Below the pieces are notes generated by a model, which ran no database searches, had not been told where the DNA came from, and saw nothing but the letters and a program-made list of their open reading frames with translations. Made by a program: the position numbers and the translations under genes. Positions 1 to 55,876 of a stretch of 64,000 nt of DNA are shown one piece after another. The DNA is taken from assembly GCA_000146045.2 (NCBI GenBank), contig BK006948.2:832001-896000 (forward strand), given 5' to 3'. The stretch's first letter is position 1. Each line of letters starts with the position of its first letter. The DNA is from TPA_inf: Saccharomyces (lineage: Eukaryota).

Positions 1-642
1 GGATTCGGGCAAATCGATGGGCCCTGGGACTGATGATGCCATATTTCTCTGCCTTGTTTATTTTTTTCTTTCGATGCTGTGTGGTTTTATTATTGCTAAC
101 TTGCAGTGGTCGACGCCTTTGAAAACTGTAAAGCTGATGCGAAGACCTAACAGTCTCTTATCCAATTACCTCAATCTGGTACGCTCCGGTACCGGACGCC
201 AGTACGAAAGAAAAACTTTTCGTTCGTCTCGGGCACCATTGGTATAAAAAGCGCCGAGGCAGCGATCATTTTTCTAGTATTACTCTTCTTTCATTTTTTA
301 GTTATCTTTGATTTTCGGTTCCGAAGAAGGCATGATACATATTAAACATGCCTTCTATTCACTGTGCCATCTTACATCCGTAGGTGATCAGAGGGGAAAA
401 GAAGAGCTAGAGCAACTCCCACACTCATGAGCGTCCTCATACTGTTCTGGGCGCTTCTCACAGGTGCTTCTTTTAGTGTCTCCCATTGGCCCAGATCGGT
501 AGCTGCGCGAGTGAGATATCTTTCATTCATTTATATTTATCTGTAGCAATAGCTTCCTTTACTATTTTATTCTTAGGGAGAACTTTAGCTTATTTCTTGC
601 ACAAGAGGGTTTGACAGTTTTCTGTTACCCGGCCAGTACTTC

Positions 643-9818: not shown

Positions 9819-10816
9819 GTCATTCGCTCATGCTTTCTTCAGGCAGCTGTACGTGTACTATGTATAAATTTTGAATAACATTTTTTTTAATAAACAGTTT
9901 TTACTCTTTTAGGTTACTTTCCAGATTGAAAATATACAACGTGGTTACATAAAGAAATTAAAATGTAGAACGAATCATGACCAACTGTATCAGGTGTTTA
10001 AAAAGGCGAGGTGAAAGAGAAAGGCTTCCCCCTCTAATATCAACAGCTGGAGATACATCTTTCTAATAATTAATCTACCATGAGCCGTACGCACTGAAGC
10101 AACGCCCATCAAACATCCGAAGCCACATTATGAGTACAAAAGAGGCTGACGTTAATAGGAACTCATGGTGTAATTTTGCTTCACTTTTCTGAATTCAAAT
10201 GGAAATAGAAGTAAAAATGGGCAGAAAAGTTACCTCATGCTTTAAATATACTCAACTTTTCTCTACCGACAGTAGGAGCCCTAAGAGATAAAGCGAAAAA
10301 TTTTCACAGCGCGCTCCTTGGTGCGGCGAGGGTATAAAAGGCGATTTCATTTCAATTCTTTGAACTTACTTCATTTGCAGGATCCTTCAGGATAAGAAAA
10401 CCATCATTCAATAAACTGATCTTCCGGATTACCATGCTTAAGACATCACGCCTCCATATGTCTATATAAAGCGCAAATGGCTGGAAGTAGACCAATTTTT
10501 TTTGTTCCTAGCTTTTCATTATTGAAATCTAATCCAGTTTTAATGGTTTTTCTTAATTAAGAAAACAAATTATCATTGGTTCGCTCTAGGTGTACATATC
10601 TTCACTTCATTACTCTCTTGTTTACATTGTATACATCGTACATATACTTCAATTATGGAAATACCATAAATTCTCTTAGTGTGTAGTTCACTAGTTTTTG
10701 GGGTTGGGTTGTGCTGTAGTCAGCTAAGGCGCTTTAGTGAACTTTCTAGTGAGTTTTTTGAATTTTAGTGTCAAAGGATAAGGAAACAGAAAGGTAAAAT
10801 AGACCTTGCTCGAGAG

Positions 10817-22186: not shown

Positions 22187-22259
22187 TGGACGCAACCGGA
22201 ATCGAACCGATGACCTCTTCCTTGCAAGGGAAGCGCGCTACCAACTGCGCCATGTGCCC
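22187..22259 (-). tRNA. tA(UGC): tRNA-Ala, anticodon UGC, 73 nt, no intron
   Basis: The reverse complement reads GGGCACATGGCGCAGTTGGTAGCGCGCTTCCCTTGCAAGGAAGAGGTCATCGGTTCGATTCCGGTTGCGTCCA. A box (TGGCGCAGTTGG) and B box (GGTTCGATTCC) are present. The anticodon loop CTTGCAA gives TGC. Position 3 is G and its pairing partner at position 70 is T on the minus strand. Confidence 0.9.
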
Positions 22260-48964: not shown

Positions 48965-50272
48965 ATGAAGGAAGAGCTCAGCAAAGTGAGCAGTATGCAA
49001 AATTTCGAGATGATCCAGCGTGAACGATTGCCAACATTGTATGAAGTGTTAATACAGAGGACATCGCAGCCAGTTGATCTCTGGACTTTTTATACATTTC
49101 TTTCACAATTCCCATATGCCATCAACTATCTGGACTTTTGGGTTGACCTTATGACACATACACGACTTTGCAAAAACTACATAGAGTTGGTAAGAAAATC
49201 ATTAATCAACTTTCCACAAGAACAACAGCAGAATGGAAGTACATCTACGGCTACATTTGACTTGCTGAACGCACTGATAGAAGAAGGGCACCTAGACCCG
49301 GAAGCACCTGATAAACTCTTAGAAAATAGCGGCCCAGACGTGCCCTTTTCACCAAAATTAAACGAATTGCTGGGTGATTGGAAGCACCAATCGGGTATCG
49401 GTCAAGAAGCCCTGAGAAACGAAGACGTAGCGCTGATCGTCGACGAGATAATGAAAAGGCGCTCCCAACAAGACGGAAAACCGCAGATAACTACAAAACA
49501 ACTGCTGCACAGCGCAGTTGGTCTCTGCAACACCTATTTAGTATCGCCCGAACAAAGCGAACGGTACCTGAGCAACATCCCCATGGAAACGCGGAACCGC
49601 ATAATAGAAAGCGTACAAATCGAGCGAAAGTACGACATTGAGATTTTTGACGACCTAAAAAACCTAACTTACCAATTCCTAGAAATGGATTGTTTCCCAA
49701 AATTTCTAAGCCGCGTCGCACTACACAACATCCACGATGAAATATCTGATTGGAGATTCCACTCAGTGGGCGTCACCAACGAAAAAAGCAATCGCTCTCG
49801 AGGCCAGACGCACATTTCTCGCTCGCCATTCTCCAATCACACGTCAATCAGTCGTATTGGCTTTGGTTTGCTCTGGCTAGGCATCGGCTTTTGGATCGGA
49901 TATGTTCTAATCTTCCTGGCGTATAGTCGCGCAATCCGTGTCGTTACGGTCGTGCCATTTACACTGGGATGCTACTGCATTGTGTGTGGCATGTATCAAG
50001 TGGACATTGTGTATTCCTGGTTTGGCGTCACACAGAGACTTCTCCACAGACACAAAAACGCTGGCAATGACGAAGGAGATGCTTCTAGTGATACCGATCA
50101 CGTGCCAATGATACTTGCGGTGTTCGGCGGTAGGCGCCGTCTTACCCGCATAGAGCACCCATTTACTCGGCAGCTTCTACGTAAGCGTGGACTGTGGTGT
50201 CTGCTTCTCGTAGTGGGTGCCACTGCCGCATTCACAGTTATTTTCAGCTGTGTTCCCGGCCGTCGTGTATGA
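48965..50272 (+). CDS. RAX1: bipolar bud-site selection membrane protein (RGS-like N-terminus, C-terminal TM segments), 435 aa
   Basis: The sequence MKEELSKVSSMQNFEMIQRERLPTLYEVL has an RGS-like domain, and C-terminal TM helices are present. The gene order BUD7-RAX1-CPA1 fits. Confidence 0.7.
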   Translation: MKEELSKVSSMQNFEMIQRERLPTLYEVLIQRTSQPVDLWTFYTFLSQFPYAINYLDFWVDLMTHTRLCKNYIELVRKSLINFPQEQQQNGSTSTATFDLLNALIEEGHLDPEAPDKLLENSGPDVPFSPKLNELLGDWKHQSGIGQEALRNEDVALIVDEIMKRRSQQDGKPQITTKQLLHSAVGLCNTYLVSPEQSERYLSNIPMETRNRIIESVQIERKYDIEIFDDLKNLTYQFLEMDCFPKFLSRVALHNIHDEISDWRFHSVGVTNEKSNRSRGQTHISRSPFSNHTSISRIGFGLLWLGIGFWIGYVLIFLAYSRAIRVVTVVPFTLGCYCIVCGMYQVDIVYSWFGVTQRLLHRHKNAGNDEGDASSDTDHVPMILAVFGGRRRLTRIEHPFTRQLLRKRGLWCLLLVVGATAAFTVIFSCVPGRRV

Positions 50273-50414
50273 TGTAATCCATCACCCCCCTATAAAAACA
50301 CCTGTGCACCGCATATTTCCATAGCGCGTGACGCTAAGTACAAGAAACAGCGAGGGGCCGTTAAGTGCAGGCTTTACCGAGGGCGCCGGCTGGCGCTTCC
50401 CGTGGAAGGGTGTT

Positions 50415-50421
50415 TGACTCA
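50415..50421 (+). promoter_or_regulatory. Gcn4 response element TGACTCA in the CPA1 promoter, with an inverted weaker copy (TTACTCATCAT) at 50451-50463
   Basis: The sequence reads gtgtTTGACTCATCATcgc...cctcATGATGAGTAAAt. CPA1 is under general amino-acid control. Confidence 0.6.
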
Positions 50422-50623
50422 TCATCGCATCGCATTACCTCATGATGAGTAAATAGTTGCGATTTCACTTATCACCTCTCGCGGAAAAAAAAGGCGATGA
50501 CATGATATATAAGGCTCTCTCGTAAGACACTTAACTATCCAACGTTCATTAGATTATTCGGTCAATTTCTTTTTTCATGCCCCTCCTTTTTCTTTTCTTT
50601 TCTTGACTCGTCGTTTCTTTTTC

Positions 50624-50643
50624 TTTTTTTTTTTTTTTTTTTT
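50624..50643. repeat. T20 tract plus flanking (TTTC)n in the CPA1 promoter
   Basis: A run of about 20 T residues. Confidence 0.85.
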
Positions 50644-50764
50644 CTTCAGAACTATAACACATAGATACACTCGAACATCTAATTGTTTAAATACTGCAAA
50701 GAATACAAGGTAATCGACTCTTCTACATACCCTTTTTGCAGATTTGAAATAAAAAAAACATTAT

Positions 50765-50842
50765 ATGTTTAGCTTATCGAACTCTCAATACACCTGCCAA
50801 GACTACATATCTGACCACATCTGGAAAACTAGCTCCCACTAA
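50765..50842 (+). CDS. 25-codon uORF: CPA1 arginine attenuator peptide ([25 protein letters not shown]), YOR302W
   Basis: ATG TTT AGC TTA TCG AAC TCT CAA TAC ACC TGC CAA GAC TAC ATA TCT GAC CAC ATC TGG AAA ACT AGC TCC CAC TAA. The ORF ends 56 nt upstream of the CPA1 ATG. Confidence 0.9.
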
Positions 50843-50898
50843 TTTCATTGCTTAATAATCAGAAATTCTATCACAAACCACTCCTAAAAATATTTCAA

Positions 50899-52134
50899 AT
50901 GTCCTCCGCTGCAACAAAAGCTACTTTCTGTATCCAAAATGGTCCTTCCTTTGAAGGTATATCTTTTGGTGCAAACAAATCTGTTGCTGGTGAAACAGTT
51001 TTCACTACTTCTCTGGTTGGTTACCCAGAGTCCATGACTGATCCTTCCTACCGTGGTCAGATATTAGTCTTCACGCAACCCTTGATTGGTAACTACGGTG
51101 TCCCATCCGGCGAAGCCCGCGATGAATACAATTTACTGAAGTATTTTGAATCTCCGCATATACATGTGGTCGGCATCGTTGTCGCTGAATATGCTTATCA
51201 ATATTCGCATTGGACCGCTGTTGAATCTCTGGCACAATGGTGTCAGAGAGAAGGTGTTGCTGCTATTACTGGCGTAGACACCCGTGAACTAGTGCAATAC
51301 TTGAGGGAACAAGGTTCTTCTTTGGGCCGTATTACGTTGGCTGATCATGACCCTGTCCCCTACGTGAATCCCATGAAAACTAACTTGGTTGCTCAAGTCA
51401 CCACAAAAAAGCCTTTCCACGTCTCTGCCTTACCTGGGAAGGCTAAGGCAAATGTGGCTCTTATTGACTGTGGTGTTAAAGAAAACATTATCAGATGCCT
51501 AGTCAAAAGAGGTGCCAATGTAACTGTTTTCCCCTATGATTACAGAATTCAAGATGTTGCTTCTGAATTCGACGGTATTTTCTTATCCAATGGACCAGGC
51601 AACCCAGAACTATGCCAAGCTACAATTTCCAACGTCAGGGAATTACTAAATAACCCTGTTTATGACTGTATCCCTATTTTTGGGATTTGTCTAGGCCATC
51701 AACTCTTGGCTCTGGCCTCCGGTGCCTCTACTCACAAATTGAAATATGGTAATAGGGCTCACAACATCCCTGCCATGGATTTGACTACCGGCCAGTGCCA
51801 CATTACATCTCAAAATCATGGCTATGCAGTTGATCCTGAGACCCTACCAAAGGACCAATGGAAACCTTATTTTGTTAATTTAAACGACAAATCAAACGAA
51901 GGCATGATACACCTTCAAAGACCCATATTTTCTACCCAATTTCACCCAGAGGCAAAAGGTGGTCCCTTAGACACAGCTATTCTTTTTGACAAATTCTTCG
52001 ATAATATAGAAAAATACCAATTACAATCTCAGGCAAAAAGTTCAATCTCACTAAAAGTAACATACAGTACCGATAAATCGAGATTGCAGAGTATAAATGT
52101 TACTAAGTTGGCCAAGGAAAGAGTGTTGTTCTAA
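50899..52134 (+). CDS. CPA1: carbamoyl-phosphate synthase (arginine-specific) small glutamine-amidotransferase subunit, 411 aa
   Basis: The in-frame ATG at 50899 gives [20 protein letters not shown]. The class-I GATase triad has the Cys in [10 protein letters not shown] and the His in FHPE. Confidence 0.9.
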
Positions 52135-52513
52135 AAACAAAATTTATACATTACGTAACACATACGTACATCTAAATACGATTCAATTCAGTTCATGGTA
52201 TTTTGCGCTACTCGTCGTTGCTTAGTATCTACTCGCAGTTGTCATAATTAACGGGCGCTTCTTGTAATTAAATGAACAAAAAAACGTAACGTACGTACAA
52301 TGGCTCTAATTTCATCCTGCCATCCTAAAAAAAAAATCAAATAAAGCAGACTCAAAAATTTTCAGCTTCAGTTAAATTTTGATAAGTATATTTGCATAAC
52401 TCAAGGAGTTTGTGCAAACGGTTTTCTTTCTTTGTGGTTTGTTTTATTTACTTTCCAATAATACCCGTCTTGTTGGTTTAAGTCGTAACAAAAGGAAAAC
52501 TTACAATCAGATC

Positions 52514-55500
52514 ATGACGACCCAGCAAGAGGAGCAACGAAGTGATACCAAGAATAGCAAAAGCGAGTCACCTTCAGAAGTTTTAGTCGATACTCTCGAC
52601 TCAAAGTCAAATGGCAGTAGTGATGATGATAATATCGGACAAAGTGAAGAGCTATCAGATAAAGAAATATATACAGTAGAAGATAGACCACCAGAATATT
52701 GGGCTCAAAGAAAGAAAAAATTCGTACTTGATGTAGATCCAAAATACGCCAAGCAAAAGGACAAGTCCGATACGTACAAAAGATTCAAATATTTATTAGG
52801 CGTCACAGACCTTTTCCGTCATTTTATTGGAATTAAGGCAAAACATGATAAAAATATTCAAAAACTCTTAAAACAGTTAGATTCTGATGCAAACAAACTT
52901 TCCAAATCACACAGCACCGTCAGTTCGTCATCACGTCACCATAGAAAAACAGAAAAGGAGGAAGATGCTGAATTAATGGCTGATGAGGAAGAAGAGATTG
53001 TAGATACATATCAGGAAGACATATTCGTCTCAGAATCTCCCTCCTTCGTCAAGTCAGGAAAATTAAGAGACTATCAAGTTCAAGGCTTAAACTGGTTAAT
53101 ATCGTTGCACGAAAACAAACTATCTGGTATCTTGGCCGATGAAATGGGGCTGGGTAAAACCTTACAAACAATTTCATTCCTAGGTTATTTGAGATACGTC
53201 AAACAAATCGAGGGACCCTTTCTAATAATAGTACCGAAGTCAACACTAGATAATTGGAGACGAGAGTTTCTTAAATGGACTCCAAACGTCAATGTCCTTG
53301 TGTTACATGGTGATAAAGACACAAGAGCTGATATAGTACGGAATATAATATTAGAAGCTAGATTTGATGTATTGATTACATCTTATGAAATGGTCATTAG
53401 AGAAAAGAATGCTTTGAAAAGATTAGCTTGGCAATATATTGTTATTGATGAGGCTCACAGGATCAAAAATGAACAAAGCGCGTTATCTCAAATAATTAGA
53501 TTATTTTACTCTAAGAATAGATTATTGATTACGGGCACGCCTCTACAAAACAATCTACACGAATTATGGGCCCTGCTAAATTTCTTATTACCTGATATAT
53601 TTGGAGATTCTGAACTTTTTGATGAATGGTTCGAACAAAACAATTCGGAACAAGATCAAGAAATTGTAATCCAACAGCTACACTCAGTACTAAACCCCTT
53701 TTTACTGAGAAGAGTCAAAGCGGATGTCGAAAAATCTTTGCTACCTAAAATCGAAACGAATGTTTACGTGGGGATGACAGACATGCAAATACAATGGTAT
53801 AAATCATTATTAGAGAAGGATATAGACGCTGTTAACGGTGCTGTTGGAAAAAGAGAAGGCAAAACGAGGTTACTGAATATTGTTATGCAATTAAGGAAAT
53901 GCTGTAATCATCCATATCTTTTTGAAGGCGCAGAACCTGGACCTCCATACACTACCGATGAACATTTGATTTTCAATTCCGGGAAAATGATTATATTAGA
54001 TAAGTTACTGAAAAGACTGAAGGAAAAGGGATCTAGAGTATTGATTTTCAGTCAAATGTCGAGACTATTGGATATCTTAGAAGATTATTGCTATTTTAGA
54101 GATTTTGAATATTGCAGAATCGACGGTTCTACTAGCCATGAAGAACGTATAGAAGCTATCGATGAGTATAATAAACCTAATTCTGAAAAGTTCGTTTTTT
54201 TGCTAACAACACGTGCCGGTGGTTTAGGTATTAACCTTGTCACAGCCGACACTGTTATTCTTTTTGATTCTGATTGGAACCCTCAAGCTGATCTACAAGC
54301 AATGGATAGAGCGCATAGAATTGGTCAAAAGAAACAAGTTCATGTTTATAGATTTGTCACAGAAAATGCTATTGAAGAGAAAGTCATTGAGCGTGCCGCA
54401 CAAAAGCTGAGACTAGACCAGTTGGTTATCCAACAGGGCACGGGCAAGAAAACTGCATCTCTTGGTAACTCAAAGGATGATCTGTTGGATATGATTCAAT
54501 TTGGCGCTAAAAATATGTTTGAAAAGAAAGCAAGTAAAGTCACTGTTGATGCTGATATCGATGATATTTTGAAAAAGGGGGAACAGAAGACACAAGAACT
54601 AAATGCCAAATACCAAAGTTTAGGACTTGACGACTTACAAAAGTTCAATGGGATCGAGAACCAATCTGCTTACGAATGGAATGGTAAAAGCTTTCAAAAA
54701 AAATCCAACGACAAAGTAGTTGAATGGATTAATCCTTCCCGAAGAGAAAGAAGAAGAGAGCAAACCACTTATTCAGTTGACGATTATTATAAGGAAATTA
54801 TTGGTGGTGGCTCTAAATCAGCAAGCAAGCAAACTCCGCAGCCAAAAGCACCCCGCGCTCCAAAGGTTATACACGGTCAAGATTTCCAGTTCTTCCCCAA
54901 GGAGTTGGATGCCTTACAAGAAAAGGAACAGCTTTACTTCAAGAAAAAGGTCAACTATAAGGTTACTTCTTATGATATTACGGGAGATATACGTAATGAA
55001 GGAAGCGATGCTGAAGAAGAAGAAGGAGAATACAAAAATGCCGCTAATACAGAAGGTCATAAAGGCCATGAGGAACTTAAAAGAAGGATTGAGGAGGAGC
55101 AAGAGAAGATTAATTCAGCACCGGATTTTACCCAAGAAGATGAATTACGAAAGCAAGAATTGATATCAAAAGCCTTTACTAACTGGAATAAGAGGGACTT
55201 TATGGCGTTTATCAACGCCTGCGCCAAATACGGTAGAGATGATATGGAAAACATTAAGAAATCTATTGATTCCAAAACACCAGAAGAGGTTGAAGTGTAT
55301 GCAAAAATATTCTGGGAAAGACTAAAGGAAATCAATGGGTGGGAGAAGTATTTACATAATGTAGAACTTGGTGAAAAAAAAAATGAAAAACTGAAATTCC
55401 AGGAAACTCTATTGAGGCAGAAAATCGAACAGTGTAAACATCCATTACATGAGCTGATAATACAGTATCCACCTAATAATGCTAGAAGAACTTACAATAC

Positions 55501-55876
55501 CTTAGAAGATAAATTTTTATTATTAGCTGTTAACAAGTACGGACTTCGTGCTGACAAGCTCTATGAAAAATTAAAGCAAGAAATCATGATGAGTGATTTG
55601 TTCACTTTTGATTGGTTTATAAAGACAAGAACGGTGCATGAGCTATCAAAAAGAGTCCATACGCTATTAACTTTAATTGTAAGAGAGTATGAGCAACCTG
55701 ACGCAAATAAGAAGAAAAGGAGTAGAACTTCAGCGACTAGAGAGGATACTCCTTTATCCCAAAATGAAAGCACTAGAGCTTCAACGGTTCCAAATCTCCC
55801 GACGACGATGGTGACAAATCAAAAAGATACAAACGATCATGTTGATAAAAGAACCAAAATTGATCAAGAAGCATGA
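52514..55876 (+). CDS. ISW2: ISWI-family chromatin-remodelling ATPase, 1120 aa
   Basis: The track start is a GTG codon. The ATG at 52514 gives [11 protein letters not shown]. The SNF2-family motifs are [21 protein letters not shown] and [11 protein letters not shown] plus the helicase C, and HAND-SANT-SLIDE modules lie at the C-terminus. Confidence 0.9.

Follow-up and report, generated by a model that had tools for sequence, protein, structure and literature searches.

The 25-codon upstream open reading frame (uORF) that precedes CPA1 in the 64,000-nucleotide stretch of DNA analyzed here (the window) is the arginine attenuator peptide (AAP) of Saccharomyces cerevisiae itself, the type specimen of its family and not merely an AAP-like sequence. 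This uORF almost certainly serves as a cis-acting nascent-peptide arginine sensor of CPA1, in which leaky scanning past the uORF start codon is combined with stalling of the ribosome at the uORF stop codon. The uORF is an already known textbook element, which was described in 1987 and has its own gene name, its own Pfam family, and entries in UniProt and PDB. The AAP of CPA1 and arg-2 is the founding example of a eukaryotic nascent peptide that senses a small molecule inside the ribosome, and it serves as a model in studies of ribosome arrest, of control by uORFs and of the triggering of nonsense-mediated decay (NMD). The present analysis adds a correction concerning leaky scanning and an independent comparative confirmation of selection at the peptide level, and no new biology.

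The anatomy of the locus, the identity and family membership of the peptide, the selection on its amino acid sequence, the conserved poor context of the upstream AUG (uAUG) and the unstructured state of the leader RNA are seen directly in this analysis. The features of the locus are as follows.

50415 to 50513, + strand: candidate promoter elements, namely a putative Gcn4-type site TGACTCA at 50415-50421 and a putative TATA box TATATAA at 50507-50513.
50759 to 50768, + strand: uORF start codon in a poor context (cattatATGt, T at -3) that permits leaky scanning, according to orthologue comparison and published papers.
50765 to 50842, + strand: AAP uORF, YOR302W, 25 sense codons and TAA, supported by the ORF listing, Pfam, the PDB match and exact-sequence look-up.
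50792 to 50827, + strand: conserved functional core of 12 residues, T10-K21, supported by alignment, codon comparison and papers.
50801 to 50803, + strand: D13 codon GAC, encoding the residue whose change to Asn (D13N) abolishes regulation.
50840 to 50842, + strand: uORF termination codon TAA, the site of the arginine-dependent ribosome stall, with published disome footprints.
50843 to 50898, + strand: intercistronic spacer of 56 nt, which contains no ATG and is conserved among orthologues neither in length nor in sequence.
50899 to 52134, + strand: CPA1 (YOR303W), the regulated main ORF, encoding the small (glutaminase) subunit of arginine-specific carbamoyl-phosphate synthase (CPSase), 411 aa, with its ATG at 50899-50901.

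The uORF AUG is located 134 nt from the CPA1 AUG, and the two ORFs are in different frames. Besides the uORF AUG, the region 50521-50898 contains a single ATG, at 50577. This triplet (50577-50579) is located 188 nt 5' of the uORF AUG; apart from these two, no ATG occurs from the TATA box to the CPA1 start. It may or may not be present in the mRNA, depending on the position of the transcription start. The CPA1 leader was reportedly estimated in 1987 to be ~250 nt long, and, going by this length, the ATG at 50577 would lie 5' of the transcription start.

The uORF peptide is identical to S. cerevisiae S288C YOR302W (UniProt AAP_YEAST, 'Arginine attenuator peptide') and the main ORF is identical end to end to S. 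cerevisiae S288C CPA1 (NP_014947.3), when both are examined by exact-sequence look-up. The main ORF contains the Pfam domains CPSase_sm_chain (E=3e-44) and GATase (E=1e-53). The uORF peptide matches the Pfam family PF08252, Leader_CPA1 ('arg-2/CPA1 leader peptide'), with 58.8 bits (E=3.1e-16) against a gathering cutoff of 18.5 bits, and this match spans positions 1-23 of the 23 positions of the profile. It is also aligned with PDB 2xl1_A, the Neurospora 'arginine attenuator peptide' (E=0.001); this 2010 model is the only PDB chain found in a sequence search with the uORF peptide. A nascent chain of 25 residues has no fold of its own that could be predicted. The original prediction that this uORF encodes the arginine attenuator peptide upstream of CPA1 is therefore borne out by the exact match, PF08252 and 2xl1, and its coordinates, its peptide and its 56-nt distance to the CPA1 ATG agree exactly with the sequence and the ORF listing. 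The core given in that prediction, D-x-I/L-S-D-H/Y-I/L-W, is present in the peptide, and it is aligned as a conserved block when the peptide is compared with Neurospora arg-2 and other fungal AAPs, as had been proposed as a check.

All sequence-level defining features of the AAP family that were examined are found at this locus. The uORF has 25 codons (about 18-25 are expected) and is located on the same strand in the 5' leader of a CPSase small-subunit gene. The peptide contains the critical Asp, which is D13 in yeast and D12 in Neurospora, followed downstream by DH-[IL]-W. The context of the uAUG is weak, with T at -3 in S. cerevisiae. CPA1 is flanked by a RAX1-like ORF at 48965-50272 and by a SNF2/ISW2-type ATPase from 52412, in the same gene order as in related yeasts, and these RAX1-like and ISW2-like neighbours support the identity of the CPA1 locus.

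The ORF call for the downstream neighbour, 52412-55876 on the + strand (GTG start, 1154 aa), over-extends the ISW2-type ATPase, which is about 1120 aa long when counted from the first in-frame ATG, the length of the Isw2p entries. A protein-database cluster at 90% identity holds Cpa1 (411 aa) together with Isw2p (1120 aa) under a representative of 1154 aa. This shared cluster looks like a clustering artefact. S. cerevisiae Cpa1 is missing from the list of CPA1 homologues because it is clustered under the 1154-aa representative. Elsewhere in the window, three H/ACA snoRNA genes score well over the Rfam gathering thresholds, snR8 at 332-521 (+), snR31 at 9961-10182 (-) and snR5 at 10403-10599 (+), of which snR31 and snR5 are divergent and about 220 nt apart. 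A tRNA-Ala gene with the anticodon UGC, at 22187-22259 (-), is detected by both ARAGORN and Rfam.

The length of the uORF is not in itself beyond chance, because ORFs of this size are common in random leaders. In random leaders of 250 nt with the composition of the window, the mean number of ATG ORFs with 25 codons or more is 0.56, and 74 ORFs of at least 20 aa are listed in 4.5 kb. The core motif D[YFW][ILVM]SD[HYF][ILVM]W, in contrast, has a single match when the 64-kb window is translated in all six frames, with an expectation of 1.2e-4, and the motif with its central S position left free is not matched in any of 300 shuffles. A chance ORF is rejected, because the uniqueness of the motif and the PF08252 match rule chance out despite the unremarkable length.

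To follow the uORF in other fungi, a search with the CPA1 protein was used to collect genomic DNA around 11 orthologue loci, ranging from Saccharomycetaceae to Eurotiomycetes. The CPA1 orthologues across Ascomycota are 63-79% identical. A homologous AAP uORF is located upstream of CPA1 at eight of these 11 loci. It is present as an unsplit, same-strand, AAP-like uORF directly 5' of CPA1 in Naumovozyma dairenensis, Torulaspora delbrueckii, Kluyveromyces lactis, Eremothecium cymbalariae and Komagataella phaffii, and is split by one or two introns in the other three of the eight, Yarrowia lipolytica, Exophiala dermatitidis and Uncinocarpus reesii. A scan of the loci with the strict motif detects it at four of the 11, and the count was raised by a later similarity scan and inspection of the DNA. 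The weak conservation suggested by the strict scan is rejected, because the core is substituted in K. lactis and three uORFs are split by introns.

The uORF of Yarrowia lipolytica is interrupted by one intron of 703 nt (GTGAGT...CTAACCCAG), and those of Exophiala dermatitidis and Uncinocarpus reesii are each interrupted by two introns at identical codon positions. Removal of these canonical introns gives the intact peptides MRVSSHSTSQDYLCDHIWKCSTH, MCFPSIFTSQDYISDHLWKAQAN and MRVIPSEFTSQDYISDHLWKASVN. All seven orthologue peptides tested, including the three spliced reconstructions, exceed the Pfam threshold when searched alone. The introns are located at 1705-2407 of locus L004 (Yarrowia), at 2254-2367 and 2381-2435 of L006, and, with lengths of 96 and 68 nt, within 2206-2444 of L007. 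A phase-1 intron inside the D17 codon is common to Yarrowia, Exophiala and Uncinocarpus, and a second intron, after the Q12 codon, is common to both Eurotiomycetes. The common position in the D17 codon suggests that this intron is ancient and was lost in Saccharomycetaceae.

An AAP is not detected in the 2.5 kb upstream of CPA1 in Ogataea polymorpha, Candida pseudojiufengensis or Starmerella bacillaris, when all six frames are searched with a half-motif and with the profile (loci L008, L009 and L011, region upstream of position 2501). This result indicates that the AAP device is not universal among budding yeasts, because three of the 11 orthologue loci are without the uORF. Judged from the distribution among these loci, the absences in Ogataea, the CTG-clade Candida species and Starmerella are probably lineage-specific losses. 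The intergenic DNA between CPA1 and the divergent RPL3 gene is only 183 nt long in Ogataea polymorpha; Komagataella phaffii has the same RPL3-CPA1 arrangement and keeps the AAP uORF. There is a slim chance that the pattern of independent AAP losses in some budding yeasts and of an anciently split uORF is undescribed; a 2007 survey by Hood, Spevak and Sachs probably covers much of it. If undescribed, these losses would provide natural loss-of-sensor comparisons, by which it could be asked what replaces arginine-specific translational control.

T10, D13, Y14, D17, H18 and W20 are invariant in an alignment of 10 sequences that includes the Neurospora fragment from 2xl1, and Q12 and K21 are nearly so. 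The core S varies among the aligned AAPs, being replaced by Q in K. lactis and by C in Yarrowia, and the position allowed as H or Y in the core is H in every aligned sequence. All degenerate codons of the 12-residue core, in contrast to the invariant residues, show synonymous variation between species, and the codon differences over 36 species pairs comprise 184 synonymous and 63 nonsynonymous changes. This result indicates that selection acts on the peptide, because the codons vary synonymously while the residues stay invariant. Retention of the reading frame and the sequence across introns also points to selection on the peptide.

These comparisons bear on the explanation that the uORF is a generic, sequence-independent ribosome sink, or that CPA1 is regulated by the sequence or structure of the leader RNA rather than by the peptide. 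The frequency with which comparable ORFs arise by chance (0.56 per random 250 nt) would fit a generic uORF. However, the codons have diverged under a conserved amino acid sequence, the peptide remains intact even where one or two introns break up the genomic sequence, and the single change D13N abolishes regulation according to published papers. Nor does the leader RNA show any unusual structure. The minimum free energy of the region 50650-50920 is -26.1 kcal/mol, as compared with a shuffle mean of -24.6 (z = -0.41), and Rfam gives no match at E up to 1 in the region 50300-51100. A riboswitch-like structured element in the leader is rejected because of this z value and the lack of an Rfam match. 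The probability that a generic uORF or the leader RNA accounts for the regulation is negligible.

CPA1 is under general amino-acid control. The motif TGASTCA is not enriched in the 64-kb window, where six copies are found against 8.25 expected. The single, perfect Gcn4-type site upstream of CPA1 is therefore only a lead and is not significant on the sequence evidence alone. The promoter region of CPA1 also contains a T-run of about 27 nt at about 50620-50646.

The position of the conserved residues relative to the stop codon is nearly constant. The distance from the critical Asp to the C-terminus is 12 residues in eight of the nine full-length peptides and 11 residues in K. phaffii, and the core Trp is located 4-5 residues before the stop codon. 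In the cryo-EM structure of the Neurospora AAP (24 residues), Asp-12 is placed against uL4 at the constriction of the exit tunnel, and mutations in the uL4 loop weaken the arginine-dependent stalling of this AAP. The spacing of the Asp and Trp from the stop codon is consistent with recognition of the peptide by the tunnel just as the ribosome arrives at this codon. The same near-fixed distance from core to stop fits a role within the ribosome and argues against the proposal of a free micropeptide of 25 residues that leaves the ribosome and acts in trans, for example on the CPSase enzyme or on arginine sensing. The CPA1 uORF was reportedly found by Werner and colleagues in 1987 to act only in cis. 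The published papers describe an action of the nascent peptide from within the exit tunnel. No support for a trans-acting micropeptide is found, the peptide being simply annotated as the protein YOR302W, and we attach practically no probability to this proposal.

The arginine-dependent stall at the stop codon, the effect of D13N, leaky scanning, NMD and the contact with uL4 are taken from the literature, in which both the stall and NMD are reported for this same locus. At high arginine, ribosomes stall at the uORF termination codon once they have synthesized the AAP, and the D13N mutation, which is used as a loss-of-function control, abolishes AAP regulation of CPA1; the D12N change of the Neurospora AAP also causes loss of function. 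The published disome profiles show footprints in which the leading ribosome occupies the uORF stop codon of CPA1, such that the ribosome-profiling peak expected at this codon in the original prediction is already documented. When His-tRNA charging is limited, the CPA1 uORF disomes move one codon upstream, to the final His codon. Longer occupancy of the uORF stop codon leads to NMD of the CPA1 mRNA, according to papers that summarize Gaba et al. (2005). In a single-molecule study, the 80S dwell time increases by only about 22-42%, and enhanced uORF initiation and ribosome clustering are proposed as extra layers. The simple picture of a single roadblock is therefore incomplete, because the increase in dwell time is modest and extra layers are proposed.

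The original prediction also stated that the stalled ribosome blocks reinitiation at CPA1. According to this explanation, CPA1 is normally translated by ribosomes that reinitiate after finishing the uORF, which the arginine-dependent stall would prevent. The ATG-free spacer of 56 nt would in principle allow it. However, the papers describe leaky scanning, in which the stalled 80S ribosome blocks scanning pre-initiation complexes. The context of the CPA1 uAUG is poor; when arginine is low, this uAUG is passed over by most scanning complexes, which then start translation at CPA1. An improved uAUG context lowers main-ORF output at any arginine level, and relaxed stringency of eIF1 also lowers translation of the CPA1 main ORF. 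Scanning complexes that arrive behind the stalled ribosome are held up by it, and initiation at the main ORF persists in the presence of cycloheximide.

The orthologues also argue against reinitiation. The -3 position is a pyrimidine at all nine uORF AUGs compared (T at eight, C at one). Spacer lengths in the orthologues run from -8 to +133 nt, and no spacer contains an ATG. The uORF stop codon is located beyond the annotated CPA1 AUG, out of frame with it, by 8 nt in K. lactis (uORF at 2431-2508 of locus L003) and by 4 nt in K. phaffii (2448-2504 of L005), such that ordinary downstream reinitiation is impossible in these two species. The pyrimidine at -3 in all nine cases and the two overlapping uORFs fit leaky scanning. 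The annotated N-terminus of K. lactis CPA1 is aligned with that of S. cerevisiae, which suggests that the annotated start is genuine. In K. lactis or K. phaffii, a ribosome held at the uORF stop codon would cover the main AUG. On the basis of the papers, the uAUG context and the uORF overlaps, the stall mainly blocks leaky scanning, not reinitiation, and the original prediction named the wrong step. It is very improbable that prevention of reinitiation explains the control of CPA1.

The mechanism by which the AAP uORF controls CPA1 through leaky scanning and stalling would thus be described as follows. Most scanning 43S complexes would skip the uORF AUG, which has T at -3, and initiate at the CPA1 AUG, and the minority that translate the uORF would make the 25-residue peptide. 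When the ribosome reaches the TAA codon, the core T10-K21, including D13, would be located in the exit tunnel near the constriction formed by uL4 and uL22. At high arginine, the complex of peptide and tunnel would inhibit the peptidyl-transferase centre, such that termination becomes slow and the 80S ribosome is held on the stop codon. Inhibition of the peptidyl-transferase centre by the AAP is said to have been described by Wei and colleagues in 2012 and by Wang and colleagues in 1998. The stalled 80S ribosome, together with the queue behind it, would physically block later scanning subunits from the CPA1 AUG, and the long occupancy of an early stop codon would expose the mRNA to NMD. The predicted outcome is that less carbamoyl-phosphate synthase is made when arginine is abundant. 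No observation in this analysis speaks against this mechanism.

When the uORF is compared with known systems, no difference is detected from the S. cerevisiae CPA1 uORF (AAP_YEAST); the peptide and CPA1 are identical, and the position, the spacer and the neighbours fit. The Neurospora crassa arg-2 AAP is similar in that a gene of the CPSase family is located downstream, the core has the form ..T-x-QDY-[IL]-SDH-[IL]-W-[KR], the critical Asp is 12 residues from the C-terminus, and the papers report an arginine-dependent stall. Its N-terminal third and its final four residues, however, are not related in sequence to those of the yeast AAP; in addition, I is replaced by L at two positions of the core, and K21 by R.

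Other eukaryotic stalling uORF peptides, namely hCMV gp48 uORF2, mammalian AMD1 MAGDIS, the Arabidopsis AtAMD1 S-uORF and CGS1, resemble the AAP: as nascent chains in the exit tunnel, they halt the ribosome that is making them and repress the ORF downstream, several of them at termination and in response to a small molecule. However, their sequences and ligands (polyamines, AdoMet, or none) are unrelated to those of the AAP. In uL4, the hCMV peptide contacts loop 2 rather than loop 1, and MAGDIS is not long enough to extend to the constriction. Bacterial TnaC, which responds to tryptophan, is named as an analogy in the literature, in that a complex of ribosome and nascent chain senses a free amino acid and termination is inhibited. 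Unlike the AAP, TnaC acts in a bacterial ribosome and its output is transcription anti-termination rather than a block of scanning; the two show no sequence similarity. The GCN4 uORFs share with the CPA1 uORF the use of uORF-based translational control in amino-acid biosynthesis, applied to a regulator or to an enzyme. GCN4, however, is controlled by regulated reinitiation that depends on the ternary complex and is largely independent of the uORF peptides, whereas CPA1 is controlled by leaky scanning and a peptide-dependent stall.
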